Source: an uncultured Acidimicrobiales bacterium
Lineage (GTDB): Bacteria > Actinomycetota > Acidimicrobiia > Acidimicrobiales > VFJN01
Assembly (NCBI GenBank): GCA_963842015.1
Contig: CAWJFG010000016.1
Coordinates: forward strand, 11,059-75,058
Direction of reading: 5' to 3'
Length of the DNA: 64,000 bases
Shown here: in pieces, positions 1,922 through 30,597 of the stretch
Layout of the letters: every line of letters starts with the position of its first letter
Position numbering within the stretch: the stretch's first letter is position 1
Program-made: the position numbers and the translations under genes
The notes under the pieces: model-generated
Seen by the model: only the letters and a program-made list of their open reading frames with translations
Databases searched by the model: none
Told to the model about the DNA's origin: nothing

Positions 1922-3075
1922 TCGTGGACGTCGTCGAGCTGCGCGGGCTCGCCCCGAAGGTCCTGAGCGTCCTCGTCCGTCGCGGTGCCGACTTCGCGAC
2001 GGCCGAGGACGCCGTGCAAGAGGGGCTGATCCGGGCACTCTCGGTGTGGGAGGACGACGCACCTTCGGATCCCGAGGGCTGGCTGATCACCGTGTCCTGG
2101 AGGGCGTTCCTCGACATGGCGCGATCGGACGCCGCACGTCGCGACCGAGAGGTCCGACTCGACAGCGATCCGCCCACGGGCATCGTGCCGTGCGCCGACG
2201 ACACCCTGCACCTCTACTTCCTGTGCGCGCATCCCGACCTGACGCCGTCATCAGCGGTCGCCCTCACGCTCCGGGCGGTGGGCGGGCTCACCACCCGCCA
2301 GATCGCGCAGGCCTACCTCGTGCCCGAGAGCACGATGGCGCAGCGCATCAGCCGCGCCAAGCGCACGGTCAGCCGGGCCGGTCTCGATCGTCCCGGCGAG
2401 GTGCGAACCGTGATGCACGTGCTCTACCTCGTCTTCAACGAGGGCTACTCAGGCGACGTCGACCTCGCGGCCGAGGCCATCCGGCTCGCCCGCCAGCTGG
2501 CCACGTTGGTCGACGACCCCGAGGTCGACGGTCTGCTCGCCCTGATGTTGCTGCACCACGCGCGCCGCCGCAGTCGCACCCGACCGGACGGAGGGATCGT
2601 GCCACTCGGCGAGCAGGACCGGAGCCAGTGGGACACCGAGCTCATCGCCGAGGGAGTCGACATCCTCCAAACCGCCCTCGCGCAGGACCGGCTCGGCGAA
2701 TACCAGGCCCAAGCGGCGATCGCCGCGCTGCACGCCGACGCCCGCCGCTTCGAGGACACCGACTGGGTGCAGATCCTCGAGTGGTACGACGAGCTGCTCC
2801 GGTTCGCCGACACCCCGATCATCCGGCTCAACCGTGCCGTCGCCCTCGGCGAAGCGGACGGCGCACCCGCGGGGTTGGCGGCACTGGCCGACATCGACGA
2901 GAACATCCCGCGTCGCGATGCGGTCGCTGCCCATCTCCAGGAGCGCAACGGCGATCTCGAGCTCGCTGCCCGCCTCTACGCCGCCGCGGCCCGCAACGCG
3001 CCGAACCTCGCAGAGCGCGATCACCAGACTCGCCAGGCCGCGCGGCTCAACCAACTCCTGCGTCACCCGCGATGA
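1918..3075 (+). CDS. ECF-type sigma-70 family sigma factor with a long helical C-terminal extension
   Basis: From GTG 1918 it reads ..FATAEDAVQEGLIRAL..GWLITVSWRAFLDMARS.. for region 2 and LTLRAVGGLTTRQIAQAYLVPESTMAQRISRAKR for the region 4 HTH. A TPR-like tail follows. It is coupled to the YCII gene, a pairing known in Actinobacteria. Confidence 0.85.
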   Translation: MIVDVVELRGLAPKVLSVLVRRGADFATAEDAVQEGLIRALSVWEDDAPSDPEGWLITVSWRAFLDMARSDAARRDREVRLDSDPPTGIVPCADDTLHLYFLCAHPDLTPSSAVALTLRAVGGLTTRQIAQAYLVPESTMAQRISRAKRTVSRAGLDRPGEVRTVMHVLYLVFNEGYSGDVDLAAEAIRLARQLATLVDDPEVDGLLALMLLHHARRRSRTRPDGGIVPLGEQDRSQWDTELIAEGVDILQTALAQDRLGEYQAQAAIAALHADARRFEDTDWVQILEWYDELLRFADTPIIRLNRAVALGEADGAPAGLAALADIDENIPRRDAVAAHLQERNGDLELAARLYAAAARNAPNLAERDHQTRQAARLNQLLRHPR

Positions 3076-3133
3076 CCGGGTCTCACGGCTCGACACGGTC
3101 GGAGCAACCGGGCCGGCGAGGGGCCAGACGATC

Positions 3134-3304
3134 GTGGCCGCCGACGGACGGGGCGGCATCTGGAGCATCCCCAGCGATCCCGACGAGTGGCAACGGCGCG
3201 CCTGCGACATCGCCGGACGCAACCCGTCCCGCGAGGAGTGGGCAGAGGTGCTGCCCGACCGGCCCTACCGCGAGACATGTCCGGAGCACCCGGCCAGCAC
3301 CTGA
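3134..3304 (+). pseudogene. Orphan C-terminal fragment resembling the tail of actinobacterial WD40/STAND proteins
   Basis: The frame reads ..GGIWSIPSDPDEWQRRACDIAGRNPSREEWAEVLPDRPYRETCP then stop. No matching N-terminal body lies upstream, where the sigma gene ends at 3075. Confidence 0.25.
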
Positions 3305-3440
3305 TCGACATCAGCTTTGAGACCTTCGTGCTCCGGTCGATGCTCTACACATCGGTTTCACCTGATGCTTGACGGGTCGACCGACACGCAGTGCTGGCAG
3401 CGACGGGCCCAGCTCTTGGCGGGCTCGAATCCGGCGGCAG
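3283..3440 (-). repeat. MITE/REP-like palindromic element, copy E1 (degenerate)
   Basis: Core TTCACCTGATGCTTGACG lies at 3357-3374. The flanks align by eye with both arms of the 14355-14540 copy. Confidence 0.45.
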
Positions 3441-3444
3441 AGCT

Positions 3445-4236
3445 TCAGCTCACGGTCTTCACGAACTGGCGGATCTCCCTCGCGCACGCTTCGGGGTCCT
3501 CGACCACACAGGCGTGGCCGAGCTTCGGAAGCACGACAAGCGCCGATGTCGAGATCGCGGCATGGAGCGCCTTGGCGTTCGCGAGCGGCGACCGAGCATC
3601 GGCGTCGCCGTGCAGGACGAGCGTCGGCACGTCGATCGTGGGCAGCACCGACCGTAGGTCGGTCTCCGCCCCAACATGGCCTGCTGCTCGAATCGTCGCC
3701 GGACGTATGTTCTCACGCATCATCGTGACCAACGCGGCGTCGCGGTCGGCCGGGATGAGGGCGGAGAACAAGCCCGGGTAGGACTTCGGGTCGAACGCGT
3801 CGCCGAGTTCAGCCATGCCGACGAACATCTCGAGCCGTCGTGCCACCTCGTCTTGGGGCAACGAACCTGCCCAGCCCGCGTAGCCGCCGACGAGCACGAG
3901 ACTCGCTGACAACTCGGGTTGGCGCTGGAACAACGACAAAGCGACCATCGTCCCGAACGAGTGACCCACCAGATGCGGCCGCTCGAGGCCGAGCGCGGCC
4001 ACGAACCCCGCCAGCGCGTCAGCGAACTGGGGCGCTCGCCAGCTGTCATCGATGTCCGACGACTCGCCGAAACCTGGAGCGTCCCACGCAATGACGGTGT
4101 GGTCACGTGAGAGGTCCGGGACCATCCACTGCCACGTGCGGCTGTCGCTCGGCGCACCGTGCACCATGACCAGGGCCGGCCCGCTGCCCACGCATGTGTA
4201 CGCGATCCGCATCCCGTCAACGTCGACGTGTTCCAC
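3445..4236 (-). CDS. alpha/beta hydrolase
   Basis: Motifs include VMVHGAPSDSRTW, the nucleophile elbow LVGHSFG, and LVLHGDADARSP..LGH. GTG 4236 (VEHVDVDGMRIAY) is preferred over the ORF-track start at 4353, which lies inside a repeat. Confidence 0.85.
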   Translation of the reverse strand: MEHVDVDGMRIAYTCVGSGPALVMVHGAPSDSRTWQWMVPDLSRDHTVIAWDAPGFGESSDIDDSWRAPQFADALAGFVAALGLERPHLVGHSFGTMVALSLFQRQPELSASLVLVGGYAGWAGSLPQDEVARRLEMFVGMAELGDAFDPKSYPGLFSALIPADRDAALVTMMRENIRPATIRAAGHVGAETDLRSVLPTIDVPTLVLHGDADARSPLANAKALHAAISTSALVVLPKLGHACVVEDPEACAREIRQFVKTVS

Positions 4237-4324
4237 CCTGCGATTCTGACGCAGGTGAGAACGATGACTTCGCCCGCAAGGTGCCGTACCGGGCGCTTGC
4301 GCCCGTCGTCCTGCCCGAGGCCTC

Positions 4325-4549
4325 GGAGGGGTAGAGGGTTCTCGGCCGAGCATCGCCCATCACCTGGAACCGAAACGTCAAGCATCAGGTGAAGCCAGAC
4401 AGCGGGACCGCAACCGTGTGCGGTCCCGCGTCATGGCTGACGATCGTGCCCCAGGACATGGTCGACAGTCGCCGTGATCGGTCTGCTGGCTGTTCGTCGC
4501 GCCACGTACGAACGACGATCCATCGAGCCCACGGAGGCGTCCGTCCTAG
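4325..4549 (-). repeat. MITE/REP-like palindromic element, copy E2 (expanded centre)
   Basis: Reverse-complemented, 4328-4402 reads CTGTCTGGCTTCACCTGATGCTTGACGTTTCGGTTCCAGGTGATGGGCGA.. and matches the 9876-9952 copy closely. The decayed second arm ends at CTAG 4546-4549. Confidence 0.55.
4402..4429. terminator. Perfect 11-bp stem hairpin (GCGGGACCGCA / TGCGGTCCCGC)
   Basis: Seen directly in the sequence. It lies about 115 nt downstream of the 4546 stop, inside copy E2, and has no T tract. Confidence 0.4.
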
Positions 4550-5823
4550 TGCGGCGACCTCTGGAAGTGGTGAGCGAGGACGTGGTTCACCGTCTTCTTG
4601 CCGATCGTGATTCCGTCCTCGACCGCGGAGCGGTAGTGGATGCCGCCCCAGATGCGGCCGTTGCCGACGTCGTATTCCAGGTCCTTGACCCGGTCGAAGT
4701 GGCGATCTCCGAGGCCCGTCAGGCTGGGGACCGTGAAGTCGATGTGGCCCGTTCCCAGGAAGTTCTGGATGACGCGCCCTCCGGCCGGGGTGATGCACGA
4801 GTGTGCGCTCGGATACTCCGGGTGGTTCGGTGTCGCCGGGAGCAGTGGAGTCCAGGCTGGGTCGGCCACCGTCGCGTCGTTGCCGTCGGTGTCCCCGGCC
4901 CGGATGGCGGTGATCGGGCGCCAGAACGGGTCGTGGTACTTGGCGTCGAAGCAGGCGATCAGCGCGTCGGCGTATGTCACGGACATCATCGCCATGAACC
5001 TCGACGCGTCCCCGACATCCAGGCCGTGGTCGAGCACGAACGTGCGGAAAGAGCCGCGTGCTTGTTGGACGGGGGGCTCGCCCCAGAACCGAGCCGCGAC
5101 TGTCTGCTCGTCGGTCCGCGTCGTGCTCGTGCTCGAGCCGATCTCCTTGACCTCGTTGTAGTCGCGTGCCCACGTCTTGCTGTCGAGTGCCGGGGGGCCG
5201 CTTGGCCGGAACTGGTCGGCGGTGGCGAGGCTGAACGGCCGCATGAGGCCGAGGTAGGGGCCGATCGGGGGCGTGGGCGCCGTCGGGATCCAGACTCCGG
5301 GGATCGGTGGATCCGGCGGCGTGTACGTCACCGGCGCTCGAAAGCCGTCGTCGGCGCGCTCGGCGATGAGGAGAGCTGCAACCTGCTCGCCCGTTGCCAC
5401 GCCGTCGGTCTTCGCCAAGCCGTCCGGGATCGTGGCCAGCGATTCGACGTACGCAGGATCGACGATCCCCGCCGCCTGGGCGGGCAGGTAGTGGACGAGA
5501 ATGCGATGGGCGGCGGCGGCAACGGCGGCCTCGGCCGAGGCACCGTCAGGTGCGTCGACATCGATCGCGAACGGCTGATACCCACCCTCGATGGCCATCA
5601 CAGAGTCGTAGACCGCGATGGCGACATAGGCGAAGATGGTGTGGCCCTCTGGGGGTGTGAGGCCCGCCGCGGTGAAGGCCCGTGAACCGACCAAGTCCCA
5701 GTCCGTGACGTACGTGTCCGGCGGGCCCGATGCTGGAGCATCCGCACTGCTCGCGGTGGCTCCGCTGGGCACAACGACCGCGGCGACGAGCAGTGCTGAA
5801 ATCATCAACCAGAGCCGTCTCAT
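4546..5823 (-). CDS. Secreted PAP2-superfamily / vanadium-haloperoxidase-like protein
   Basis: The signal-like N-terminus MRRLWLMISALLVAAVVVPSG starts at ATG 5823. Motifs include HPEYPSAHS and GRIWGGIHYRSA. Confidence 0.75.
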   Translation of the reverse strand: MRRLWLMISALLVAAVVVPSGATASSADAPASGPPDTYVTDWDLVGSRAFTAAGLTPPEGHTIFAYVAIAVYDSVMAIEGGYQPFAIDVDAPDGASAEAAVAAAAHRILVHYLPAQAAGIVDPAYVESLATIPDGLAKTDGVATGEQVAALLIAERADDGFRAPVTYTPPDPPIPGVWIPTAPTPPIGPYLGLMRPFSLATADQFRPSGPPALDSKTWARDYNEVKEIGSSTSTTRTDEQTVAARFWGEPPVQQARGSFRTFVLDHGLDVGDASRFMAMMSVTYADALIACFDAKYHDPFWRPITAIRAGDTDGNDATVADPAWTPLLPATPNHPEYPSAHSCITPAGGRVIQNFLGTGHIDFTVPSLTGLGDRHFDRVKDLEYDVGNGRIWGGIHYRSAVEDGITIGKKTVNHVLAHHFQRSPH

Positions 5824-6123
5824 GATGGCAACCCCTTCAAGAGGACGTGGGCGTGACACACCGTGATCGAAAGATCACGCGCGCCACTGCTTGAGCTTCA
5901 GCCGCCCGGAGAACATCGACATGGCGGATTGGGACGGGTGGCCCGCGCTCGCTACCGGCGGAGTGACGCCGTTGGACCCAGTCGGGCTCGCGGTCCGATT
6001 GCGCGCCAGGGAGGCGACACACTGGCCATTAGAGAAGGGCGCCGACATACACCCCACGAGGACGGCACGCATTGCGCCTCCTTGTGCAGGATGACCGCCC
6101 GCGCGCCCGCCCCGCGACGACAG

Positions 6124-6177
6124 CATGCCCTCACAGAGTGGCCGTGGCAAGCGTCATGCCCTCACAGAGTGGCCGTG
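6124..6177. repeat. Two perfect 23-bp direct repeats (CATGCCCTCACAGAGTGGCCGTG) with a 31-bp period
   Basis: The copies at 6124-6146 and 6155-6177 are identical. They lie in about 470 bp of non-coding DNA next to the tRNA island junction. Confidence 0.8.
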
Positions 6178-6296
6178 CCAGGCCTCCTGAGCTGATCCAC
6201 GCGCGAGGCCGCAGGCATCGAGGACGCATCGACCCGCCCGGTCGCGACCGTTGCCGTCGCCGAGTACGAACACTGCCTCGACCACTCCTACTCGCC

Positions 6297-6337
6297 GCGA
6301 GAGGAGAATCGAACTCCTGACCTACGCATCACGAGCC
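6297..6337 (-). repeat. Partial copy of the tRNA-Thr 3' half (att-like)
   Basis: CGAGAGGAGAATCGAACCTGACCTACGCATcACGAG-type sequence here matches 6572-6610 of the intact tRNA, from the anticodon loop to near the 3' end, with one mismatch. Confidence 0.75.
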
Positions 6338-6522
6338 TGGTCCATGGCGACGTGCAGACGATGCTCGGCCACGCCGAGGCGAGCCTGACGCTCGACGTTT
6401 ACGCGCAGGCGGACGCCAAGTTGGGTGAGGCAGCGGCCGAGGCGATGGGCGCCCGGTTCCTCGGGTCGGCGGCACGCGATGGACGCGCGATGGAGTCGGG
6501 TTATGACCGCGAGCCCGTTTGA
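6338..6522 (+). pseudogene. Tyrosine recombinase/integrase C-terminal remnant
   Basis: The frame reads LVHGDVQTMLGHAEASLTLDVYAQADAKLGEAAAEAMG.. then stop at 6520-6522. This is the LGH..T...Y catalytic-Tyr end of integrases. The N-terminal roughly 300 aa are absent. Confidence 0.5.
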
Positions 6523-6567
6523 CCGGTTCCTCGGGCCTGTGGTGGCTGACCTGGGGGTCTGCCGGAG

Positions 6568-6640
6568 AGCCCGAGAGGAGAATCGAACTCCTGACCTACG
6601 CATTACGAGTGCGTTGCTCTGCCGTCTGAGCTACTCGGGC
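6568..6640 (-). tRNA. tRNA-Thr (anticodon CGU)
   Basis: Hand-folded cloverleaf: GCCCGAG TA GCTC AGACGGCA GAGC A ACGCA CTCGTAA TGCGT AGGTC AGGAG TTCGATT CTCCT CTCGGGC T. It is 73 nt with no encoded CCA. Confidence 0.9.
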
Positions 6641-6775
6641 GGGACGAGTCACGATAGCAGCGGCCGTCCAGGTGACCGGAACCGGTTGTCCGTGCTGGTC
6701 AGGCACCACGGCCGGCACGCCACCGAGGCTGTCGTCGGCATCGTCGCCGCCCTCCCCCACCGTCTCGTCAGCGCC
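6603..6775. repeat. Left copy of a 145-170-bp direct repeat (tRNA 5' half plus upstream flank)
   Basis: It aligns with 15829-16000 with only a few mismatches as far as GGCATCGTC. Similarity then decays. Confidence 0.85.
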
Positions 6776-6885
6776 GTCGTTGTCTGGATAGCCGATCACG
6801 AACGCCTGGACGGGCCCGATGCTGATGGAGGTGTTGCTACTGGTGGGCGCCGTGCCATGCGACGCTGACACCTTGGCGAGGCACT

Positions 6886-7108
6886 CAGTGACCGACCTGG
6901 CCGCCGAACCGTGTACACCCATTGTCGATGGAACAGACACTGCCCGCATCACGCACATCAGGTGACTCGTGCACCGGTGTGACCACGTCATGAGCCAGGG
7001 AACGACACCGACCAGCGCCATCGCCACCCTGAAGATCACGGCCCGTCAGGCGGTCGGCGAAGCTGGTCCCTGGTGCGTGAAGGGGTCGGGGCAGCAGACC
7101 CTCAGAAC
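6886..7108 (+). repeat. MITE/REP-like element, copy E6 (expanded centre, decayed)
   Basis: CGCACATCAGGTGA lies at 6952-6965. The right arm CCTGGTGCGTGAAGGGGTCGGGG..CCCTCAGAAC at 7068-7108 aligns with CCTGATGCGTGACGG..CCCTAGGAC of copy E4. Confidence 0.4.
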
Positions 7109-7971
7109 ACGCTCGGGACCTGCCGGACGGCGAGGTTGGGGTCCTGGTAATCGCCGGCGCGTTGGCGCTTGGGCAGCTTGACGTCGCGCTGCTCGAGCGG
7201 CTGGTACGGGATCTGGCCCAGAAGGTGGGTGATGACGTTCAGGCGGGTGCGCTTCTTGTCGTCGGAGTTGACGACGTACCACGGGGCCCACGCCGTGTCG
7301 GTCGCGGCGAACATGGCGTCGCGCGCCCGCGCGTAGTCGAACCACCGGCTGTAGGACTTGAGGTCCATATCGGTGAGCTTCCAGCCCTTGCGCGGGTCGT
7401 TGATGCGGCTCTCCAGACGACTGGTCTGCTCGTCTGGGCTCACCTCGAGCCAGTACTTGAGGAGGACGATGCCGGACTCGATCATCGCCCGCTCCACGTT
7501 CGGAACGAGTTCGAGGAAGCGCTTGGTCTGCTCCTCGGTGCAGAAGCCCATGACCCGCTCCACGCCGGCGCGGTTGTACCAGCTGCGGTCGAAGATGACG
7601 ACCTCCCCGGCGGCCGGGAGGTGTGCGAGGTAGCGCTGGAAGTACATCTGCGACTTCTCGCGCTCGGTAGGCGCGGGGAGGGCGACGACGCGGAACGTTC
7701 GGGGGCTCACCCGCTCGGTGATCGCCTTGATGGTGCCGCCTTTGCCGGCGGTGTCGCGGCCTTCGAAGACGATGCAGATCTTGGCGCCCGACTCCTTCAC
7801 CCACTCCTGGAGGGCGACGACCTCGCCGTGCAGCCCGCGGAGCTTGAGCTCGTACTCCTTGCGCTTCATCTTCGGCCGCGGCTCGCTATCGTCCGCCGCT
7901 CTGGAGGCGGTCGGCTGAGATCCGAGCGTGTGGTCGCGGTGCTTCTTGTCCTTCTTCTTGGCGTTGCTCAT
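7102..7971 (-). CDS. ppk2: Polyphosphate kinase 2
   Basis: Motifs include VFEGRDTAGKGGTI, ERVSPR, FDRSWYNRAGVERVMGF and WKLTDMDL. The alternative start ATG 7869 (MKRKEYELKL) would remove the 86-nt overlap with the upstream gene. Confidence 0.9.
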   Translation of the reverse strand: MSNAKKKDKKHRDHTLGSQPTASRAADDSEPRPKMKRKEYELKLRGLHGEVVALQEWVKESGAKICIVFEGRDTAGKGGTIKAITERVSPRTFRVVALPAPTEREKSQMYFQRYLAHLPAAGEVVIFDRSWYNRAGVERVMGFCTEEQTKRFLELVPNVERAMIESGIVLLKYWLEVSPDEQTSRLESRINDPRKGWKLTDMDLKSYSRWFDYARARDAMFAATDTAWAPWYVVNSDDKKRTRLNVITHLLGQIPYQPLEQRDVKLPKRQRAGDYQDPNLAVRQVPSVF

Positions 7972-9406
7972 GTCGATCGACTTTCGGTGGTTGCGTTGGG
8001 GTGTGGGCGAAAGGTCGGGCTGTTAGCGCTGCGCTTCGTCGATGGGGGTCGTGTGGCCGGTGGCGGCCCGCGAGGGCGCGGAGCGTCCACCAGATCGAGG
8101 GCGACTTCAGCGCGGCCGGGGAGTAGCCGGGCGCCGAGGTGGGGATGCGGATCCGCAGCGCGCCGGGCAGGATGCGGAACTCCAGCGGCGGGTCGAACAG
8201 CATGGCCTCGCCGTCGACCCCGGCCTCGATGGGCGCACCAGATTCGACGGTGAAGGTGGGGGCGGCCCACTCGGTCCAGCCCGCGAAGCGGCCGACCCGG
8301 CGCGCCGACTCCGCGGCGACGAGAGCGGCGACGTCGCTGGCGCCACGGACCTTGGCCGCGGCGATGCCGAGCCGGCCGGTGTCGAGCCGGGCCCGGGTAC
8401 CGAGCCCGGCGAGCGTCGTCAGCTCGTAGGGGTTGTTCGAGACCTGGATGAGTTGGGCGCCGTCCTGGCGGGTGCCGTCACGATCGGCGAAATGAAGGTC
8501 GAACGGCTCGGCGTCGGGGCCCAGCAACGCGGGCAGCATCGCCGCGGTCGTCTGGCGTTTGGCGTCGCGGTACTCGGGCGACTGGATGATCTTGGCGTAG
8601 ACGCCCAGCGACACGTTGTTGACGAACACCCGGCCGCTCACCTCGGCGAGGTCGATGCGCCGCTCGACCGCCTCGTCGAAGGCGTCGAGCGCGCCGACGA
8701 CATCGTTGCGGTCGAGGCCGACGTCGAGGGCGAAGTGGTTGCGGGTACCGGCGGGGATGCAGACCAGCGGCACGTCGGCCGCCGCGGCCACCGAGGCAAC
8801 CAGCGCCTGGGACCCGTCACCGCCGGCCATACCGATCACGTCGGCGCCGCGGTCGATGGCACGCTGGGCCAGGTCGAGCATGTCATCACCGGGCTGGAGC
8901 ACCACGGGCTCGATGCCACGCCGGCGGCACTCCTCGACCAGATCGAACCGCTCCGCCTTCCCGCCCCCGGACTTCAGGTTCATGATGAGGACACCCTGCC
9001 GGGCCGGGCCCACCGGCGTGCCCGGGACCGCCTGCGCCTTCAGCGCGGCGGCGTCTCGCCGCAGGGCGTACCGGGCGAGAACGGCGGACACTGCCAGCAG
9101 GGCGACCACCACGACCAGGCCCAGCCCCTGGTCCTCGGCGGTGAGCACGACAGCGGCCAGCAGCACCAGCATCGCCACCGCGGCGACGCCGGCAACGATC
9201 CGGATCCGGCCCTTGCGGGTGGCTGCGATCCACGCCGCGGCGGCCAGCACTGCGGGCAGCACAAGCGCCACGATCAGCCGACCCACATCGCCCACAAGGC
9301 TGATGGCACCAACCACCACCGCGGCCCCAGCGAGTGCCAGGGCGCCGATGGCGGCGGCCCGACGCGCCGGGTCCAGTCGCTGAGCGGCTCCGTTCGTGTC
9401 GGTCAT
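7886..9406 (-). CDS. Diacylglycerol/lipid kinase family protein (LCB5/YegS-like) with an N-terminal transmembrane segment
   Basis: From ATG 9406 it reads MTDTNGAAQRLDP, followed by 3-4 hydrophobic helices. The kinase domain shows VLIMNLKSGGGK and VIGMAGGDGSQALV. The ORF-track extension to 10018 runs through a repeat and is rejected. Confidence 0.8.
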   Translation of the reverse strand: MTDTNGAAQRLDPARRAAAIGALALAGAAVVVGAISLVGDVGRLIVALVLPAVLAAAAWIAATRKGRIRIVAGVAAVAMLVLLAAVVLTAEDQGLGLVVVVALLAVSAVLARYALRRDAAALKAQAVPGTPVGPARQGVLIMNLKSGGGKAERFDLVEECRRRGIEPVVLQPGDDMLDLAQRAIDRGADVIGMAGGDGSQALVASVAAAADVPLVCIPAGTRNHFALDVGLDRNDVVGALDAFDEAVERRIDLAEVSGRVFVNNVSLGVYAKIIQSPEYRDAKRQTTAAMLPALLGPDAEPFDLHFADRDGTRQDGAQLIQVSNNPYELTTLAGLGTRARLDTGRLGIAAAKVRGASDVAALVAAESARRVGRFAGWTEWAAPTFTVESGAPIEAGVDGEAMLFDPPLEFRILPGALRIRIPTSAPGYSPAALKSPSIWWTLRALAGRHRPHDPHRRSAALTARPFAHTPTQPPKVDRHEQRQEEGQEAPRPHARISADRLQSGGR

Positions 9407-9814
9407 GACATCTCCTGGGTCTCGCGCCATGCAAGGCGAGGAACGCCGCCACGGTGTCGCCGACGGTGCCGAAGAGTGCATCTGGGTCGATGGCCTGAAC
9501 CGCCGGGGGTTCGTAGAGGTCTGGCTATTGAGTCCCGGCCTCGGCGATCGGGATCGTCTGACGATGGTCGACGGCCTCGAAGATGGACAGGCCCTCCTGC
9601 GTCTCGACTGGTGCCTGCGATTGTGCAGGGCGCCCGACCGACCGCGCATCGCCTGGTCTGCATGATTGTGTGGCACATGTCGACGGCCAGCGGCTCGGCG
9701 GCCCGGCACACAGCGACCGGCCTGCCATGGGCGGCGACCCCGGACGGAGGTCCTGAGCGCCAGCCGAGATCCCAGATTGCTCGTTCGCCGGGTCGAAGAG
9801 TCGCTCATGTCCGG

Positions 9815-9952
9815 GGACGGATCCGTCAACCGTGTCCCGGGATCGGACACAGATGCCAGGCAACATGCCAGCCAACTGTCCGGTTCCACCTGATGCGCGA
9901 CGTTTCGTTTCCAGGTGATGGGCGACACTCCGCCTAGAACCTCTACCGCTCC
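9815..9952 (+). repeat. MITE/REP-like element, copy E3 (right arm intact, left arm decayed)
   Basis: 9876-9952 reads CTGTCCGGTTCCACCTGATGCGCGACGTTTCGTTTCCAGGTGATGGGCGACACTCCGCCTAGAACCTCTACC. Confidence 0.55.
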
Positions 9953-10119
9953 GAGACTTGGGGCGCACAAGGGGGATGCCGCATGCGCCCAGATCGGCAC
10001 CTTGGGGGCACCCGCCAAGCTCGGTTGGGTGCTCAGGTCTGGTGACCTAGGCGCGACGAGCGCCCCGGCACCGGTCGAGCCGGCACCGGGGCTTGCGTCT
10101 GGCCGGAGGCTTCGTCGTC

Positions 10120-10980
10120 TCAGTCGGCGTCGCGTCGCACCAGCAGCGCCGTCCCGAGGACCAGGGCGGCGATGACGTAGCCCCAGAAGATCGATGCGTA
10201 GAGCGGGTTCGACAGCGCCGATGCCACGATCTCGGGCGAGTCGAAGTCCGATTCGACCCCGAGCGTGCGGAAGCCGGCATCGAAGGGCAGGAACCGCACG
10301 ACCTCAGCCGGGGCGAACTGGACGACGAGACCCTCGACGACCAGCCACCACACGAGCACACCGGAGACCGCGCCGGCGCTGTGGCGCACGACCATCCCCA
10401 CCCCGAGGCCGAGCAGCGCCGAGCCCCAGGTGTAGAGCAGCGCCCATAGCACGGTGGCGAGGAGGCCCGACGTGCTGCCGACTTCGATGCCCCCAGCGAT
10501 GGCGCCCAGGAAGCCGGTGGTCATGCCGACGACACCCAGCGCCAGGCCGAAGCCGGTGGCAAGGAGGGTCTTGGCGACCACGACGGGCCACCGCGACGGG
10601 TGGGCGGTGAGGGAGCCGGCCAGGGTGCCGTGCTGCACCTCGGCGGTGAACAGCAGGACTCCGGCGATGGCGGCCAGCACTGCGGTCAGCAGTGTCGGGT
10701 AGACGAAGACGTCGGTGACGGTCAGGACCTCGTCGGTGACGAAGGCGGCGGTGGCCCACGAGGTGAGCAGGCCGATGATCGCCGAGATGGCGAGGAGGAC
10801 CTTGTTGGCCCGCACGGTGGTGGACTTGATCCGTTCGCTGCGAAGGACCGCAGCGAGCTGGCCGGCGGGGCGCGGGCCGGCGGTGGTCGTGGCCTCGGCG
10901 GCCAGCGGGAGCGGTACCTCGGTGGTGGTCATGGGGGGTTCCTCGTGCTCAGTGGTGGAGTTGGCGGTGGCGGTGGTCAT
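10120..10980 (-). CDS. ABC-2 type transporter permease
   Basis: The 286-aa ORF has six hydrophobic segments. Its start overlaps the stop of the ATPase gene. Confidence 0.8.
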   Translation of the reverse strand: MTTATANSTTEHEEPPMTTTEVPLPLAAEATTTAGPRPAGQLAAVLRSERIKSTTVRANKVLLAISAIIGLLTSWATAAFVTDEVLTVTDVFVYPTLLTAVLAAIAGVLLFTAEVQHGTLAGSLTAHPSRWPVVVAKTLLATGFGLALGVVGMTTGFLGAIAGGIEVGSTSGLLATVLWALLYTWGSALLGLGVGMVVRHSAGAVSGVLVWWLVVEGLVVQFAPAEVVRFLPFDAGFRTLGVESDFDSPEIVASALSNPLYASIFWGYVIAALVLGTALLVRRDAD

Positions 10981-11696
10981 GCGGAGGCGAACTCGGCGGA
11001 TGCCGTGGTCATCTCGAGGAGGCTGTCCTCGAGTGACATCCCGGTCCGGGACGTGACGGATTCGACGGTCTCGGCGGCGATGAGCCGCCCGGCGCCGACG
11101 ACGACGAGGTCGTCGGCGAACTTGGCGAGCTCGGCGATGAGGTGGCTGGACACGAAGACCGTGCCGCCTGCGTCGGCGAAGCTGCGCAGCCGGTTCCGCA
11201 GCCAGCGGATGCCGTCGGGGTCGAGGCCGTTGGACGGCTCGTCGAGCAGCAGGACCCGGGGGTCGCCCAGCAGGGCGCTGGCGAGCGCGAGCCGCTGGCG
11301 CATGCCGAGCGAGAACCCGCCCGCCCGCTCGTCGGCCACGCTCTCGAGCCCGACGTCGGCCAGCACGTCATCGACCCGGGAGGTCGGGATGTTGCTGAGG
11401 GCGGCGGTGGCCCGCAGGTGGTTCCGGGCGGTGCGACCCGGGTGCATGCAGCGGGCGTCGAGGACGGAACCGACGGTTCGCGCGGGGTGGGCGAGGTCGA
11501 CGTAGCGGACACCGTCGTAGCGGACCTCGCCTCGGTCGGGCCGGGCGAGGTCGACCATCATCCGCATGGTGGTGGACTTGCCGGCGCCGTTGGGGCCGAC
11601 GAAGCCGGTGACCCGGCCGGCCTCCAGCTCGAAGCTGAGGTCGTCGACGGCGCGCCGCTCCCCGTAGTGCTTGGTGAGTCCGGTGACGTTGATCAT
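10977..11696 (-). CDS. ABC transporter ATP-binding protein
   Basis: It carries Walker A GPNGAGKST, the signature FSLGMRQRL and Walker B LLLDEPSNGLD. Confidence 0.9.
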   Translation of the reverse strand: MINVTGLTKHYGERRAVDDLSFELEAGRVTGFVGPNGAGKSTTMRMMVDLARPDRGEVRYDGVRYVDLAHPARTVGSVLDARCMHPGRTARNHLRATAALSNIPTSRVDDVLADVGLESVADERAGGFSLGMRQRLALASALLGDPRVLLLDEPSNGLDPDGIRWLRNRLRSFADAGGTVFVSSHLIAELAKFADDLVVVGAGRLIAAETVESVTSRTGMSLEDSLLEMTTASAEFASA

Positions 11697-11947
11697 GTCT
11701 GTGCTCCGTGGGTGTGGGCGGGGTGGTGGTGGGCGGCGTCGGTGGGCGCGATCGAGATCACGTCGACGTTCACCGACGTGAGGTGGGCGAGGACGCCGTG
11801 GAGGTGTGAGCGATCCCCGATCTCGCCGACGAGGCGGGTGATGCCGTCTCCGCCGTGGTCGAAGGTGAAGTCGTCGAGCAGTGGCCGTAGGAGCCGGGCG
11901 CTGGGCCGGCCCCGCAGGACGATCTCATAGGTGGTGTTCTCGGGCAT
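11693..11947 (-). CDS. Small hypothetical protein (84 aa) coupled to the ABC operon
   Basis: It reads MPENTTYEIVLRGRPSARLL..LHGVLAHLTSVNVDVISI. It shares an ATGA overlap with the ATPase start and has good GC3 usage. Confidence 0.55.
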   Translation of the reverse strand: MPENTTYEIVLRGRPSARLLRPLLDDFTFDHGGDGITRLVGEIGDRSHLHGVLAHLTSVNVDVISIAPTDAAHHHPAHTHGAQT

Positions 11948-11996
11948 GGAGGCACCATCGCCCCCACCTGGACGAGACCGCCTCATCCACCCCGTC

Positions 11997-12014
11997 ATCT
12001 CACCCGGGTGAGAT
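11997..12014. promoter_or_regulatory. Perfect 18-bp palindrome ATCTCACCCGGGTGAGAT in the divergent ABC/LuxR region
   Basis: Read directly from the sequence. It lies between ATG 11947 (minus strand) and the LuxR start candidates at 12008, 12026 and 12035. Confidence 0.5.
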
Positions 12015-14230
12015 CGAACCGTAGGGTGAGCCAGGTGACGCAGGACTGGGAGTCGGGCCTCGCCGCCACCAAGGTCCAGCCGCCGATGCCGCCCCGGCAC
12101 CTCGTCCAGCGTCCCCGACTCGATGTCGCCCTCGACACCGCCGTCGATGCGCAGGTCCGCCTGGTGCTGGTGAGCGCCCCGGCCGGCTCTGGCAAGTCCA
12201 CACTGCTGGGAGCCTGGCTGGCCACCCGGCCCGAGGCAGTGGCCTGGCTCCAGGTCGAGGACTCCGACTCCGACCCGGCCCGCTTCTGGTCCCACCTCGC
12301 GCAGGCCATCGGGCGGACCCAGCCGAGCATCGTCGCCGCGCTCCAACCGTTGGTCGCCGGGTCGAACGGCGACGAAGCCGCAGTGGTCCCCGCCCTCATC
12401 AACCGACTGGCAGAGCTCCCCGATCCGCTTCTGGTCGTCGTCGACGACTACCACCTCGTGGACGACGACCGAATCCACCGGGGCGTGGAGCGCCTCGTCG
12501 ACCTGTGCCCGCCGCAGGTCACCGTCGCGCTCGCCACCCGCATGGATCCGCCGTTTCGGATCGGGCGGCTGCGCGTGCGTGGACAGGTGGCGGAGATCCG
12601 CGCCCAGGACCTCCGGTTCACCCCCGAGGAGGCGGCCGGTCTGCTCGGTGGCACCGATCCCTCCCTCGACCCCCGCCTGATCACCCAGCTGTGCGGCCGC
12701 ACGGAGGGCTGGGCTGCGGGCCTCGTCCTCGCCGGTCTCTCCCTCCAGCACGCAGGCGACCCCGAAGGCTTCGTCGCGGCGTTCCGGGGCGACGACCGCC
12801 TCGTCGTCGAGTACCTCCGCGACGAGCTGCTCACGGGCCTCGACGCCGACGATCACCGACGGCTGCTGGAGACCTCGGTCCTCGACGAGTTCACCGGCGA
12901 TCTCGTCGATGCCGTCACCGACGACAGCGGCAGCGCCGAGTGGCTGCACGCGACGGCTCAGGCGAACCAGCTCCTCGTCGTCCTCGATCGCACCGGCACG
13001 TGGTTCCGCTACCACCACCTGCTACGAGATCTGCTCCGCCTCGAGGCACAGGCGGCCATGCCCGAGCGCCTCCCCGAGCTCCACCGGCGGGCCGCTTCCT
13101 GGTTCGAAGCCGCGGACGACCACGGCCGAGCGGTGAGCCACCGCCTCGCCGCCGGTGATCTCGGAGACGCCGCCCGGCTGATGCGCCTCCACGGGCCCCG
13201 GCTGCTGCGCGCCGGGCAGATCGACACTCTCCGCAGCCTGCTCGATCGGCTCGGTGAGGTCACCCGCACGGAGGTCGCGTGCGCCTTCCTCGCCGGGTGG
13301 TGCGAGTTCCTCGCCGGTCGCTACGCAGAGGCCGAGCGGTGGCTCGATATCGTGGTCGACCTCCTTCCCGCCGGCTCAACAGCGGCGACGTCGCTGCGCA
13401 TCAACCTCGCCCTGGCCACGGGCGACGTGGCCGGTGCGCTCGACGAGGCGAGGACCGCCCTGGCCGCGGGCCCGCTCGCCGACGGCCTCCCCGAGCTGGC
13501 CACCGCCATCGGTGCTGCGCACGCCTGGGCAGGCGTGGCCGACGAGGCGCGTTCCGCCCTCGACCTGGCAGTGGCGCGAGCCGACGTCGAGCAGAGCCGC
13601 ACGGCCCAAGCCGTGTCCCTCGTCCACCGGAGCGTGGTCGAGCTCGAGCACAGCGCGCCTGGCGTCGCTCACCGAGCAGCCCAGACGGCGATCGACAACG
13701 CCGAGCGGTTCGGGCTGTCCGGCTACCACGGCATCGCGCCGGCCTTCGCCATCCGGGCTCGAACGGGCGACGATGCAGCCCAGGTCCGCGATGACGTCGG
13801 CTACGCGCTGGCGAGCGCCCGGCGTTCATCGACCCCGCTGGCCTTCGGCTTCGTGCTCGCGGTCTGCGGCGACACGCTCCTCGATCACGGCGATCCCGCC
13901 GGCTCAGCGCTGCTCGAGGAGGCTCGCTCCGTCGTCGATCGGTTCCGAGACCCAGGCATCGCCGGCCGCTATCTCTCGCGCGCCGAGTCACGCCACGGCA
14001 AGACCACCGCACGGCCCGCACCGGTGGCCGACCTCGTCGAGCAGCTCACCGACCGCGAGATGGCAGTGCTGCGCTACCTGCCCAGCGGGCTGAACCAGCG
14101 CGACATCGCCCGGGAGCTGTACGTGTCGATCCACACCGTGCGGACCCACTGCCGCGCCATCTACCTCAAGCTCGGCGTCGGGGACCGCCACGCCGCCGTC
14201 CAGGCCGCCCGAGACCACCAGCTCATCTGA
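12008..14230 (+). CDS. LAL/MalT-like large ATP-binding LuxR-family regulator
   Basis: It has Walker A SAPAGSGKSTLL, a long helical repeat region, and the C-terminal HTH LTDREMAVLRYLPSGLNQRDIARELYVSIHTVRTHCRAIYLKLG. The true start may be GTG 12026 or 12035. Confidence 0.85.
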   Translation: MRSNRRVSQVTQDWESGLAATKVQPPMPPRHLVQRPRLDVALDTAVDAQVRLVLVSAPAGSGKSTLLGAWLATRPEAVAWLQVEDSDSDPARFWSHLAQAIGRTQPSIVAALQPLVAGSNGDEAAVVPALINRLAELPDPLLVVVDDYHLVDDDRIHRGVERLVDLCPPQVTVALATRMDPPFRIGRLRVRGQVAEIRAQDLRFTPEEAAGLLGGTDPSLDPRLITQLCGRTEGWAAGLVLAGLSLQHAGDPEGFVAAFRGDDRLVVEYLRDELLTGLDADDHRRLLETSVLDEFTGDLVDAVTDDSGSAEWLHATAQANQLLVVLDRTGTWFRYHHLLRDLLRLEAQAAMPERLPELHRRAASWFEAADDHGRAVSHRLAAGDLGDAARLMRLHGPRLLRAGQIDTLRSLLDRLGEVTRTEVACAFLAGWCEFLAGRYAEAERWLDIVVDLLPAGSTAATSLRINLALATGDVAGALDEARTALAAGPLADGLPELATAIGAAHAWAGVADEARSALDLAVARADVEQSRTAQAVSLVHRSVVELEHSAPGVAHRAAQTAIDNAERFGLSGYHGIAPAFAIRARTGDDAAQVRDDVGYALASARRSSTPLAFGFVLAVCGDTLLDHGDPAGSALLEEARSVVDRFRDPGIAGRYLSRAESRHGKTTARPAPVADLVEQLTDREMAVLRYLPSGLNQRDIARELYVSIHTVRTHCRAIYLKLGVGDRHAAVQAARDHQLI

Positions 14231-14354
14231 CGCCCGGTCGCCGCCGGTGGCTCGTCAGGAGCGGCGCTGGAGCACCATCCTCGGGGGATGGTCCGGTCGC
14301 TCGCACGCCCGGCGTAGGTGTCGTAGCCGCGGTACGCGTCGCCCGAGCGGCCTT

Positions 14355-14540
14355 CTAGGGGTGTCCCCTACCGCCGGTTCCGGGCGGTCAGCACGTGGCC
14401 GCCTGGCCCGGCGCGCCCAGTCGACGCGTCAAGCATCAGGTGAAACCGATCTGTCACGCATCACCCGAAGTCGGACAACTGTCTGGCTTCACCTGATGCG
14501 TGACGGAGCTGCGCCGGGTGATGGGCGACAACTTCCCTAG
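14355..14540 (+). repeat. MITE/REP-like palindromic element, copy E4 (best preserved, CTAG at both ends)
   Basis: The inner arms at 14427-14455 and 14479-14505 are inverted copies. The outer ends, read inward from CTAG 14355-14358 and 14537-14540, also align. Confidence 0.65.
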
Positions 14541-14619
14541 GACGCCTACATCTGCGGTCGGTGTCGGCCCGGACGGCTCGGAGGCGCCCCGACAGGCACT
14601 CTTGGGATGGCGGCGGGCG

Positions 14620-15630
14620 CTAGCTGGCAGCCGAAGCGAGGCGAGCGACCGCTTGCGCGTGTGTGACGGCGCTGTCGTACCTGGCTCCAGTGGGAACGCC
14701 TCCGATGGCCACCGTGACGAAGGTGTCACCGAACACAAGGGAGACCTCGTCGACGTACGGTCCCATGGTCACGGGTTGTATCCAGAGCCACTCGAAGGCC
14801 AGGAAGCGAACGCCTTGGGTCCCTGGTAAGTCGGGGACGTCGAAGGTCTCGACGGCAGCCTGGTCGACCCGCGCCATCCAGCGCCGGGCTGCCCTCATGG
14901 CGTCCTCGCCCGAAGGGAACCGCGTCGCCGACACGGCGACCCCGCCGTAGGTCTCGTGCTGCCAGTATCGGCTCCAGCCATCGACCGCGTCGTCGAGCGC
15001 GTCGCGGAATGTAGCGAGGTCCATCGGTCCGTCCATGGTCAACCTGTAGTCCGGGCCCGGGGACGAAGGCATGAGCGCGGCAAGCGTGTCCGGCCGGGCG
15101 GGACCCAGATCGGCAAGTACGTCGCCGAGGGTCGCCTGCATCCGTGCCAGCTCGGTGGTCGTGACCGCGCAGATGCGCCGCTCGCCGTTCTCGTCAACGA
15201 CGATGGCGACGAACGGTTCATCCACCTCGTCATCGTCGAACGTCAGCCAGTAGGTCAGCTCGACGGCGTTGTGGCCCTCGAGCGAAGGTTCGACATCCGG
15301 GTCCTCATCGGTGACCTCGATCCGGCCCATGGCCACGCGACCGACGGCTTCGGTGAAGCGGCGCAGGTCGCCCTCGAAGGCCTCGCGATCGTCGGCCGCG
15401 ATGCGACTCACCTCGCAGCGAAGGTCCATCGCCGCGTCGATGTCACCGTCGCTCATCGCCGCCGTATAGGCCCTGATCACCTCACCATCCGACGACTCCT
15501 GCCGCTCGCCCGGTATCGAAGTCGACGACGTGGTGGAACTCGACCCCTCGCCACCCCCGCCACATCCGACGCCGACAACCGCCACGAGCGCGGCGACACA
15601 GACCCGACGCACCGAGGTACCCAGCAACAT
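14620..15630 (-). CDS. Hypothetical lipoprotein
   Basis: The signal and lipobox read MLLGTSVRRVCVAALVAVVGVGC, followed by a Gly/Ser linker. No domain was recognised. Confidence 0.7.
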   Translation of the reverse strand: MLLGTSVRRVCVAALVAVVGVGCGGGGEGSSSTTSSTSIPGERQESSDGEVIRAYTAAMSDGDIDAAMDLRCEVSRIAADDREAFEGDLRRFTEAVGRVAMGRIEVTDEDPDVEPSLEGHNAVELTYWLTFDDDEVDEPFVAIVVDENGERRICAVTTTELARMQATLGDVLADLGPARPDTLAALMPSSPGPDYRLTMDGPMDLATFRDALDDAVDGWSRYWQHETYGGVAVSATRFPSGEDAMRAARRWMARVDQAAVETFDVPDLPGTQGVRFLAFEWLWIQPVTMGPYVDEVSLVFGDTFVTVAIGGVPTGARYDSAVTHAQAVARLASAAS

Positions 15631-15660
15631 CCCGGGAGTCTGCCAGCCGGCGCCGACCCG

Positions 15661-15810
15661 ACGTGTCCCGAATCGCCTGAGTCCAAGCCGGATCTGGGCG
15701 CCCCAGCGCGTCTCCGCTGCACAGTCAGCGCTGTCGGGGCGTCACGGATCAGGTGACACTGGATCGTCACGCCTCAGCCGGAGTCGGACAAACATGCCAG
15801 CCAACTCTCC
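15661..15810 (+). repeat. MITE/REP-like element, copy E5 (right arm truncated)
   Basis: GACGTGTCCCGAATCGCC.. aligns with the E4 left arm. CGTCACGGATCAGGTGA lies at 15740-15756. GTCGGACAAACATGCCAGCCAACT matches the leader of copy E3. Confidence 0.5.
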
Positions 15811-15828
15811 CACTCCCCGACGCCCAAG

Positions 15829-16000
15829 TTACGAGTGCGTTGCTCTGCCGTCTGAGCTACTCGGGCGGGACGAGTCACGAAAGCAGCGGCCGTCCAGGTG
15901 ACCGGAAACGGTTCTCCGTGCTGGTCAGGCACCAGGGCAGGCACGCCACCGAGGCCGTCGTCGGCATCGTCACACCCTTCCCATCGTCTCGTCGCCACCC
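15829..16000. repeat. Right copy of the direct repeat: tRNA-Thr 5' half (15829-15866) plus upstream flank
   Basis: TTACGAGTGCGTTGCTCTGCCGTCTGAGCTACTCGGGC is identical to 6603-6640. The flank is near-identical to 6641-6745. No 3' half is attached. Confidence 0.85.
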
Positions 16001-16087
16001 TCCGGCTGTCTGGGAGGTCCCGTCGGAGGACGGGCGTGTGCGCCGAGAACGGCACCTCGCGGGCAGTAGTTCGAGAGCCGGGCGCGG

Positions 16088-16570
16088 TCAGCCAGCGTCT
16101 CGCTCGCGTGCCCGGATCGTCTCGAGCGATTCCTGGAAATGCCAGTGGTGGCCTTCGAGATCGTCGGCCTCGTAGCGACGGTAACCGTAGAAGGCGTCCT
16201 CGATCGGCATGGTGATCGTGGCGCCCTCGGCGAGGGCACGTTCGTAGTGCGAGTCGATGCCGTTGACCGCGACGTTGATCATCACCGTCGCATGGCCGAC
16301 ATCGCCGGGGCTGTAGAGGTGGTGGACGTCCCGCGCGGCTGCGGTCGCCCGGCCGATCATGACCACGCCGTCGCCGAACTCGAGCCAGGCGAGCATCCCC
16401 TCGTCGTCGTCGCCATTGCCCATCCGGGCTTCGCGGCGTTCGGTGAACTGGAACACGCGGGTGAGGTACTCGAGCGCTGCGACTTCGTCCGCATAGGTGA
16501 GACGCGGGTACATCGCCGGTGTGCGGCTCCATGCGTCGGCTTGAGGTGTCGTGGTTCCGATGGTGGACAT
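16088..16570 (-). CDS. VOC (glyoxalase/bleomycin-resistance) family protein
   Basis: AAGGAG lies 6 nt upstream of ATG 16570. The protein reads MSTIGTT..MYPRLTYADEVAALEYLTRVFQF..AWLEFGDGVVMIG..YEADDLEGHHWHF. It is in frame with sigma region 4 upstream, with no intervening stop. Confidence 0.7.
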   Translation of the reverse strand: MSTIGTTTPQADAWSRTPAMYPRLTYADEVAALEYLTRVFQFTERREARMGNGDDDEGMLAWLEFGDGVVMIGRATAAARDVHHLYSPGDVGHATVMINVAVNGIDSHYERALAEGATITMPIEDAFYGYRRYEADDLEGHHWHFQESLETIRARERDAG

Positions 16571-17213: not shown

Positions 17214-17349
17214 CACCTCATGTTCTTCGCTCGCAGCGCCGAGTTCGGACCTGCTGCTGCGGACAGCCGCGTACCCGCCGAACTCGCCGCCCCGAGCCCG
17301 TCTCGGATCCCCGCTCACCGAGGGTCACGACCGGGGCGGACGTCGCCGA

Positions 17350-29004: not shown

Positions 29005-29025
29005 CCGCTCCGACCCCTCCCCCAC

Positions 29026-30474: not shown

Positions 30475-30522
30475 TCCTCGGTCGGCACGGCCGACCCGGA
30501 TCGACCGAATGAACGCCGCCAT

Positions 30523-30545: not shown

Positions 30546-30597
30546 GAGGCGCGTGTTCCGGCGACGTCGACCATCCCCCGACAGGGTCCGGGGACAC

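Follow-up and report, generated by a model that had tools for sequence, protein, structure and literature searches.

We analysed a 64,000-nt stretch of DNA from an uncultured Acidimicrobiales bacterium (assembly GCA_963842015.1, contig CAWJFG010000016.1, positions 11,059 to 75,058), hereafter the window, in which six related repeat arms span just 12.5 kb around a tRNA-Thr gene. These arms are very probably the terminal inverted repeats of an insertion sequence (IS) of the IS481 family, bracketing passenger genes to form three mobile insertion cassettes (MICs), c1, c2 and c3, that carry no transposase. The finding is ordinary in kind: the IS481 family and the MIC are both known, and what is new is the parent family and the host group in which they meet.

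Six repeat arms delimit three cassettes

The arms share a core, T(T/C)CACCTGAT(G/C)C(G/T)(T/C)GACG, with six matches in the 64 kb against 0.10 expected from shuffled sequences. The matches lie at 3357-3374, 4376-4393 (reverse complement, rc), 9885-9902, 14427-14444 (rc), 14488-14505 and 15740-15757 (rc) and none occurs elsewhere in the window, so the positions given in a preliminary description of this DNA, and the absence of further copies from the remaining ~48 kb, were borne out. Similarity between the loci extends past the core (self-blastn E values of 1e-8 to 1e-26) and splits the six arms into two types, A (14420-14478, 15733-15791 and 3331-3381 rc) and B (14476-14549, 9873-9946 and 4353-4402 rc). 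Among type A arms, that of c1 is 84% identical to the reverse complement of 14420-14470 and that of c3 is 82% identical to 14420-14478; the longest type B similarity, 9876-10009 against 4402-4272, covers 136 nt at 78.7% identity. The conserved terminal part of the arms measures about 85-95 nt, with weaker similarity out to about 140 nt, and every end carries two direct subterminal boxes of the TGATGCTTGAC and TTCnnnTGATGCnTGAC types. At 14386-14568 an A arm and a B arm stand back to back, their junction (14450-14507) being 76% self-complementary. An Rfam search of the region and eight related loci returned tRNAs alone, for which reason a structured-RNA reading of the arms was dropped. The arms have no sequence identity to tRNA, and a full-text literature search with the core sequence gave no match.

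The six arms pair into three units, each running from a type B end (IRR) through cargo to a type A end (IRL): c1 at ~3324-4401 on the minus strand, c2 at 9877-14477 and c3 at 14480-15790. This agrees with the earlier idea of an accessory region assembled piecemeal from repeat-delimited units. The cassettes c2 and c3 are stacked head to tail, and the pair is enclosed by a perfect 15-bp repeat, AACATGCCAGCCAAC, that abuts the termini exactly. The features of the three cassettes are as follows.

3324..3440, plus strand: left end of c1, type A (IRL), reading inward, core at 3357-3374 (IRL profile)
3445..4236, minus strand: c1 cargo, alpha/beta-hydrolase gene (Pfam Abhydrolase_1, 3.8e-25)
4272..4401, minus strand: right end of c1, type B (IRR), terminus TGTCTGG at 4401, core at 4376-4393 (IRR profile)
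9862..9876, no strand: left-hand copy (AACATGCCAGCCAAC) of the 15-bp direct repeat, directly outside the c2 IRR terminus and identical to 15791-15805
9877..9995, plus strand: right end of c2, type B (IRR), terminus TGTCCGG at 9877, core at 9885-9902, second box at 9914-9927 (profiles)
9996..14377, no strand: cargo module of c2, with an imperfect inner inverted repeat, GGCACCTTGGGGGCACC / GGGGTGTCCCCTACCGCCGG, at its borders
10120-10980, minus strand: c2 ABC-2 permease (Pfam)
10977-11696, minus strand: c2 ABC ATPase (Pfam)
12035-14230, plus strand: c2 LuxR/STAND regulator (Pfam)
14378..14477, minus strand: left end of c2, type A (IRL), terminus ..GTCGGACA at 14477, core (rc) at 14427-14444 (IRL profile)
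14478..14479, no strand: 2-nt spacer (AC) between c2 IRL and c3 IRR, where a full 15-nt copy of the duplication is expected and is missing
14480..14600, plus strand: right end of c3, type B (IRR), terminus TGTCTGG at 14480, core at 14488-14505 (IRR profile)
14620..15630, minus strand: c3 cargo, open reading frame for a putative lipoprotein with N terminus MLLGTSVRRVCVAALVAVVGVGCG and no Pfam family
15660..15790, minus strand: left end of c3, type A (IRL), terminus ..GTCGGACA at 15790, core (rc) at 15740-15757 (IRL profile)
15791..15805, no strand: right-hand copy (AACATGCCAGCCAAC) of the 15-bp direct repeat, directly outside the c3 IRL terminus (sequence)

The left end of c1 is degenerate in its terminal 7 nt (CTTCGTG in place of TGTCCGR) and no target duplication is seen around this cassette, which for these reasons looks old and immobile. 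Cargo orientation is mixed: the hydrolase gene of c1 runs from B to A, the lipoprotein gene of c3 and a methyltransferase gene in a related cassette (L012) run from A to B, and the genes of c2 run in both directions. A promoter or terminator role for the arms is thereby ruled out, and with it the earlier proposal of a 3'-end/terminator module. A leader peptide, MGDxxPRT, that appeared to be conserved at B ends was likewise rejected, since the conservation crosses a 1-nt indel and is therefore at the nucleotide level.

The preliminary description had counted six copies of the repeat. The core repeat is real, but the six arms occupy five loci, and a copy placed at 6886-7108 is unsupported: it gave no blastn match, and searches with two generations of end profiles and with a profile of the diverged, D-type ends described below reached a best E value of 1.4 (broad end profiles). 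The boundaries had also been drawn too long. Where a copy was placed at 4325-4549, for example, the conserved IRR end is 4272-4401, and 4417-4476 belongs to a neighbouring diverged element. The repeats bound three cassettes only and do not separate every gene block, and the contacts reported with stop codons do not stem from the repeat itself, cargo genes simply occupying the space that lies between long ends. The gene calls themselves hold by Pfam (alpha/beta hydrolase, VCPO-like, PPK2, DAGK, ABC-2, ABC ATPase and LuxR), as does the tRNA-Thr.

The arms match the ends of IS481-family elements

We scanned 185,579 species genomes (GTDB, one per species, the source genome not being among them) for the exact core. 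Most hits were single chance matches, and about 15 were true relatives, with at most one match per 8-kb fetched locus and at most 1-2 per genome. Hundreds of evenly dispersed copies, the pattern that the preliminary description had set against its own interpretation, thus found no support. The true relatives were chiefly Acidimicrobiales metagenome-assembled genomes; A-type matches of lesser length came from Pseudonocardiales, Mycobacteriales and Streptomyces. When the pattern was lengthened, 36 contigs of soil metagenomes were found, almost every one of which has genuine arms.

In four related loci (L084, L104, L078 and L097) the A end immediately precedes a gene whose product has HTH_32, rve, rve_3 and LZ_Tnp_IS481 domains (Pfam), and two of these elements, L084 and L078, are closed by a B end at the opposite side. 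The transposase of L104, an intact protein of 588 aa, scores 287.7 bits with the NCBIfam model NF033577 (transpos_IS481), whose cut-off is 224. A search at E <= 1e-50 found 6804 homologues, nearly all of about 588 aa and from soil, one of which bears the NCBI name 'IS481 family transposase'. The IS1202 family, whose ISTde1 subgroup makes duplications of 15-17 bp, was also considered on account of the 15-bp duplication, and the transposase model score rules it out (71.3 bits against NF033594, transpos_ISNCY_2, with a cut-off of 250). Through the homologues we fetched three full autonomous copies (L117, L118 and L119) of 3.1-3.3 kb, organised as IRL, transposase, small open reading frames and IRR, with TGT..ACA termini. 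Perfect 15-bp direct repeats flank L084, L117 and L118, and in L119 they enclose an IS together with a MIC. The duplicated sequences differ between loci (AACATGCCAGCCAAC in the window, TTCGTTGCTGTTCGT in L084, TGGACAACACCCGTT in L117 and CCGGGCACCAGGCAC in L118); the target is a 15-bp stretch of variable sequence, and the TAG or CTAG target suggested earlier does not exist.

Profiles of the two ends were built solely from transposase-carrying relatives, with window sequence excluded. They recovered all six arms at E values between 2.5e-13 and 4.5e-8, and nothing in the rest of the 64 kb fell below E 0.1. The IRL profile matched 14477-14420 (E 2.5e-13), 3327-3375 (2.4e-10) and 15790-15737 (1.2e-7), and the IRR profile matched 4401-4349 (3.7e-10), 9882-9930 (1.2e-8) and 14480-14547 (4.5e-8). 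Five of the six alignments begin at model position 1, on the TGT termini, which read TGTCCGG at 9877, TGTCTGG at 14480 and 4401 (rc), and TGTCCGAC at 14477 (rc) and 15790 (rc). By sequence, then, the arms are assigned to the two ends of an insertion sequence of the IS481 family, type A to the left, transposase-proximal one (IRL) and type B to the right one (IRR). Members of this family have TGT termini and duplicate between 2 and 15 bp of target, 'not a few' of them about 15 bp (PMC10045372), and the autonomous relatives that share the window's ends agree with it in transposase type, TGT termini and a duplication within the family range. The window itself holds no transposase detectable by tblastn with two transposases of the family (1e-3).

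Related cassettes and the mobility of c2

Transposase-less units with the same ends and other cargo are present in several related loci. The methyltransferase unit of L012 is 0.9 kb long, L076 and L095 carry hydrolase-cyclase genes (with a duplication matching at 13/14 positions in L095), and in L119 a MIC with a DUF1963 gene lies beside an autonomous copy, both inside one shared duplication.

The mobility of c2 was examined by mapping contigs of soil and rhizosphere metagenomes from four studies onto positions 2500-17500; the evidence consists of short assembled contigs. At >=98% identity these contigs cover 9882-14477 continuously, and c1, c3, the PPK2-DAGK genes and the right flank are essentially uncovered, their counterparts in the same samples being only 90-95% alike. 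On the IRR side one contig starts at 9882 and another diverges at 9876, and on the IRL side position 14477 is where contigs of X1, X3 and X4 end or depart from the window. Contigs that continue past the termini have flanks other than those in the window. In X1 the IRR terminus is preceded by a D-type end and then CCTGACTGACGATC, in an X4 contig CACCTGACTGACGATC follows the IRL terminus, and in another X1 contig the IRL terminus is followed by 15 nt and then by a sequence that we call 'C-type' (see below). The X1 and X4 flanks share a 14-16-nt duplication, (CA)CCTGACTGACGATC. Since the contigs break at the termini and continue into other flanks, c2 is a unit in its own right, inserted at other sites with a duplication of 14-16 nt. 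Overall, all three units have IS-type ends flanking passenger genes with no transposase inside. A whole unit at different sites with duplications was found for c2 and, in the window, for the c2+c3 pair, and not for c1; c3 alone was not seen elsewhere at high identity among the metagenome contigs of the four studies.

The cargo of c2 also occurs without IS ends. An exact-protein look-up placed the identical ABC ATPase in five other contigs; none of the other five proteins looked up in this way (PPK2, hydrolase, lipoprotein, ABC-2 permease and LuxR) was on record. The genes for the LuxR-STAND regulator, ABC ATPase and ABC-2 permease stand without any IS end in L112 (7328-12803), L113 (1-4278) and L114 (1-2484), at 96.7-98.5% identity. 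The left boundary of this module, GGCACCTTGGGGGCACC (window 9996), is the same in all three, while L112 and contigs of X1 and X8 show the right boundary, ..GGGGTGTCCCCTACCGCCGG (window 14377). Together the two motifs form an imperfect inverted repeat that makes up the innermost part of the long ends, and similar motifs occupy the equivalent place in c1, c3, L076 and L095. On its two sides the L112 module has TGGAAC/CTGGAAC, possibly a direct repeat of 6-7 bp. In L114, 60 nt separate the end of a tyrosine-recombinase gene from another GGCACCTTGAGGG, and in one X1 contig the IRR side of c2 is joined to different sequence at 9996. A general left and right motif (ML/MR) bounding all cassettes was tried and rejected; approximate matching gave about seven chance matches per 64 kb and proved too noisy, so boundaries are claimed for c2 only.

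The copy of the c2 cargo in L112 is itself interrupted, at 11654-12747, by a different IS of about 1.1 kb with GTGTAC.. inverted repeats and an rve_3 fragment. This element duplicates CTAG, the classical IS481-type target (NCTAGN), and the uninterrupted site lies at about 10046 in the window.

Putative landing sites and tandem arrays

Where the outer flank of an arm is long enough, it contains in most cases a further sequence resembling a terminus, or else the end of a tRNA, some 15 nt away. Outside the IRL of transposase-carrying copies, a conserved sequence of about 30 nt, the 'C-type' sequence, always stands at 15-18 nt (L078, L084, L104, L107, L117-L119 and others). It consists of a GC-rich hairpin followed by CTTGAAgtcgtAcAGAAAGTTcTCAC or a variant; it matches no Rfam family, and a search for a common upstream gene found none. 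Opposite IRR ends in the window's lineage there is often a D-type end, which has two CATGTCCYGGGAC boxes and a terminus ..GGACA. In L006 the IRR lies 16 nt after the CCA end of a tRNA-Gly, and in L097 a partial tRNA sequence precedes the IRL, with its 3' end toward it; ARAGORN calls no intact tRNA gene there. Tandem insertion is also seen among autonomous elements, L118 containing two different IS copies in tandem with three copies of one 15-mer. The corresponding features of the window are listed here.

4402..4416, no strand: spacer of 15 nt from the terminus of the c1 IRR to that of the diverged end next to it (sequence and D-type match)
4417..4476, plus strand: D-type diverged end, IRL-like, with two CATGTCCYGGGAC-type boxes and terminus at 4417 (pattern match and alignment)
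6567..6640, minus strand: intact tRNA-Thr(CGT) (ARAGORN; Rfam tRNA, 69 bits)
9790..9849, plus strand: second D-type end, terminus ..GGACA at 9849 (window-free profile at 9811-9849, E 3e-7; pattern with 1 mismatch)
15806..15982, minus strand: disrupted second tRNA-Thr copy with upstream flank (pairwise alignment)

The D-type end at 4417-4476 gave weak profile matches (E 0.16, and E 3.7e-4 for 4433-4488). Its body runs rightwards toward the VCPO-like gene (4546-5859), and that of the end at 9790-9849 runs leftwards toward DAGK and PPK2. These two ends, lying beside c1 and c2 respectively, are probably those of older cassettes belonging to a sister subfamily. Read on the minus strand, c3, c2 and the D-ended DAGK/PPK2 unit all point the same way, and c1 with the D-ended VCPO unit forms a second array of opposite orientation on the other side of the live tRNA gene. 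The IRL of c3 and its duplication sit in the T-loop of the disrupted second tRNA-Thr copy.

The tRNA gene has further traces around it. A 154-bp direct repeat of 94% identity (6603-6756 / 15829-15982), comprising the tRNA-Thr 5' half and 116 nt of upstream flank, brackets the entire 9-kb right-hand array. The second copy is a pseudo-tRNA with a decayed 3' half, a 4-nt insertion after the anticodon loop and a T-loop cut by the c3 duplication and IRL. At 6297-6340 there is a copy of the tRNA-Thr 3' half (matching 6569-6607), followed at 6340-6523 by a C-terminal remnant of a tyrosine integrase (..LGHAEASLTLDVYAQ..) that has no Pfam match and ends 44 nt before the live tRNA; a homologous remnant adjoins tRNA-Pro in L073. 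The segment 6297-6523 looks like the scar of a classical tRNA-targeting integrative element.

Proposed mechanism and alternative explanations

Given these ends and duplications, we infer mobilisation in trans. A cognate IS481-type DDE transposase of about 588 aa, encoded elsewhere, would bind the two TGATGCTTGAC-type boxes of each end and cut at the TGT..ACA termini, and the unit would be inserted through a 15-bp staggered cut, duplicating 15 bp of target. The relatives suggest a targeting rule by which the IRL is placed at a distance of exactly one duplication length from a specific site, either the 'C-type' sequence or a partial tRNA 3' end (L097); the recognisable flank next to the IRR end would be a tRNA 3' end (L006) or the end of a resident element. 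As the target would be regenerated after each insertion, repeated insertion would build tandem arrays.

Several observations weigh against reading the three units as MICs. The presence of the cognate transposase in the same cell is presumed, the window encoding none. In the window c2 and c3 have no duplication of their own, only the pair does, and their junction measures 2 nt and not 15, while c1 has the decayed terminus described above and no duplication. The metagenome evidence for c2 comes from assembled contigs and not reads. Finally, the c2 cargo is found without IS ends in three contigs with the same inner boundary, from which it follows that a second process also moves or exchanges cargo; cargo may be captured or exchanged at the inner sites.

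A first alternative is that the arms are cassette sites of a tyrosine recombinase, integron-like or belonging to accreted tRNA-targeting elements, with the palindromic A.B junction acting as attC or attP. In its favour, the region surrounds a tRNA gene and contains an integrase remnant and a copy of the tRNA 3' half (6297-6523), tyrosine-recombinase genes or fragments lie near related loci (L073, L112 and L114), and the c2 cargo recurs without IS ends, its fixed inner borders being related as an imperfect inverted repeat. Conservative recombination, however, needs one shared core, and the junction spacers vary between loci and are duplicated within a locus, as in transposition. The gene consistently adjoining the A end encodes a DDE transposase and not an integrase, the termini are TGT..ACA, and the arms have no identity to tRNA. 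We therefore consider a tyrosine recombinase very unlikely. Att sites as such were rejected in the absence of an identical core common to the junctions and the tRNA, with spacers differing between loci, and so was membership of an integron: there is no IntI, attI or attC, the integrase trace at 6340-6523 is a remnant, and the cargo lies in both orientations.

There is a similarly slim chance that the arms are real IS ends and the units were never mobile, host genes having been trapped between solo ends of independently decayed IS copies. The state of c1, which lacks a duplication and has a decayed terminus, would suit such a history, as would the decayed D-type ends and the failure to see c3 elsewhere at high identity. 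It is hard to reconcile, however, with the recurrence of c2 as the same IRR-cargo-IRL unit in other contexts, with the perfect 15-bp duplication around the c2+c3 pair, and with the same architecture around other cargo in unrelated contigs. An ordinary intergenic repeat family, resembling repetitive extragenic palindromes (REP) or bacterial interspersed mosaic elements (BIME), or a 3'-end terminator module, is extremely improbable and already contradicted. The arms are intergenic and partly palindromic (14450-14507, 76% self-complementary), and some lie close to stop codons; yet their orientation relative to genes is inconsistent, no Rfam family matches, copy number is low (at most one exact core per fetched locus in the scan of 185,579 species genomes), and the arms are tied to a transposase and target duplications.

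Beyond the MIC interpretation, we regard as rather unlikely, and put forward only tentatively, the joint reading that the whole system is a DDE-transposon counterpart of the integron, with site-regenerating, oriented cassette arrays at tRNA loci and, in addition, cargo exchange at the inner inverted repeat (GGCACCTTGGGGG.. / ..CCCCTACCGCCGG). Insertion would then be IRL-first, one 15-bp duplication length from a 'C-type' sequence, a tRNA T-arm/3' end or a resident element's terminus. Exchange at the inner repeat would account for the occurrence of the c2 cargo with and without IS ends as well as the X1 join at 9996.

Other repeats in the window

Additional repeats were found outside the cassette region. 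Two paralogous stretches, 29579-29878 and 31039-31338, are 93% identical and each is followed by arrays of 30-nt repeats, which by-eye translation renders as Asp/Asn/Ser-rich peptide repeats (..SVNDSGNIDA..); the region 29579-31950 looks like two tandem genes for acidic repeat proteins. Just upstream, at 28901-29006, are three tandem repeats of 33-35 nt (CGGCCCGGACGAGGTCGACATCGGCTCGTTCTGAC) that are 84-89% alike. An 84-nt direct repeat of 98% identity lies at 60424-60507 and 60584-60667 (starts 160 nt apart). A long inverted repeat (38674-39044 / 40918-41291), with arms totalling about 350 nt, 72-75% complementary and about 1.9-2.3 kb apart, probably corresponds to two divergent or convergent paralogous genes.

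Comparison with known systems and significance

The elements resemble the IS481 subgroup with duplications of about 15 bp (ISfinder; PMC10045372) in their TGT..ACA termini, terminal inverted repeats and 15-bp duplication, and in the HTH/rve/rve_3 transposase of the relatives. They differ from it in that the window copies lack a transposase and that the ends are unusually long, with two subterminal boxes each. Typical IS481 members measure about 1-1.3 kb, whereas the autonomous relatives reach 3.1-3.3 kb and have extra open reading frames and a 588-aa transposase with a C-terminal extension of about 290 aa. MICs consist of IS-type inverted repeats around passenger genes, contain no transposase, are flanked by target duplications and are presumed to be mobilised in trans. 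Known examples derive from IS231 in the Bacillus cereus group and from Tn3 in Xanthomonas (PMC6542083 and PMC4337579). The window cassettes share all of these properties (ends, passenger genes, lack of a transposase, duplications and presumed mobilisation in trans) and differ in their IS481 parent, in their hosts, soil Acidimicrobiales-like actinobacteria, and in forming oriented tandem arrays next to tRNA genes.

For the mode of insertion, a precedent is the ISAba32 subgroup of the IS1202 family, which targets XerCD sites with the IRL one duplication length away, regenerates the site and forms tandem arrays (bioRxiv 10.1101/2022.12.17.520857). Likewise, the IRL of L117-L119 stands exactly one duplication length from its site, and arrays share the same duplication. 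Unlike ISAba32, the duplication here is 15 bp and not 5-6 bp, the target is not xrs but either a 'C-type' site, the 3' end of a tRNA or an end belonging to some other element, and the transposase fails the ISNCY_2 model. The arrays recall integron cassette arrays and Acinetobacter pdif modules in consisting of small accessory-gene units (here methyltransferase, glyoxalase, hydrolase, GNAT and transporter genes) with imperfect palindromic junctions between them. In contrast to these systems, there is no IntI, attI, attC or Xer site, each junction is formed by transposon termini that abut, and the associated enzyme belongs to the DDE transposases.

For genome annotation, arms of this type should be masked as IS ends and not taken for regulatory RNAs or terminators. 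Two features stand out, namely the insertion of units at one duplication length from a fixed site and the recurrence of cargo apart from its ends. Soil Acidimicrobiales-like actinobacteria have small accessory genes that move as transposase-less cassettes of an IS481 lineage. This lineage is abundant, soil metagenomes containing thousands of homologues of its transposase, and one of the cassettes, c2, with its ABC transporter and LuxR-type regulator, circulates almost unchanged across soils of several studies. The oriented arrays carry site-abutting insertion of the IS1202 type over to the IS481 family and, if this is true, would represent an integron-like route to the accumulation of cassettes.

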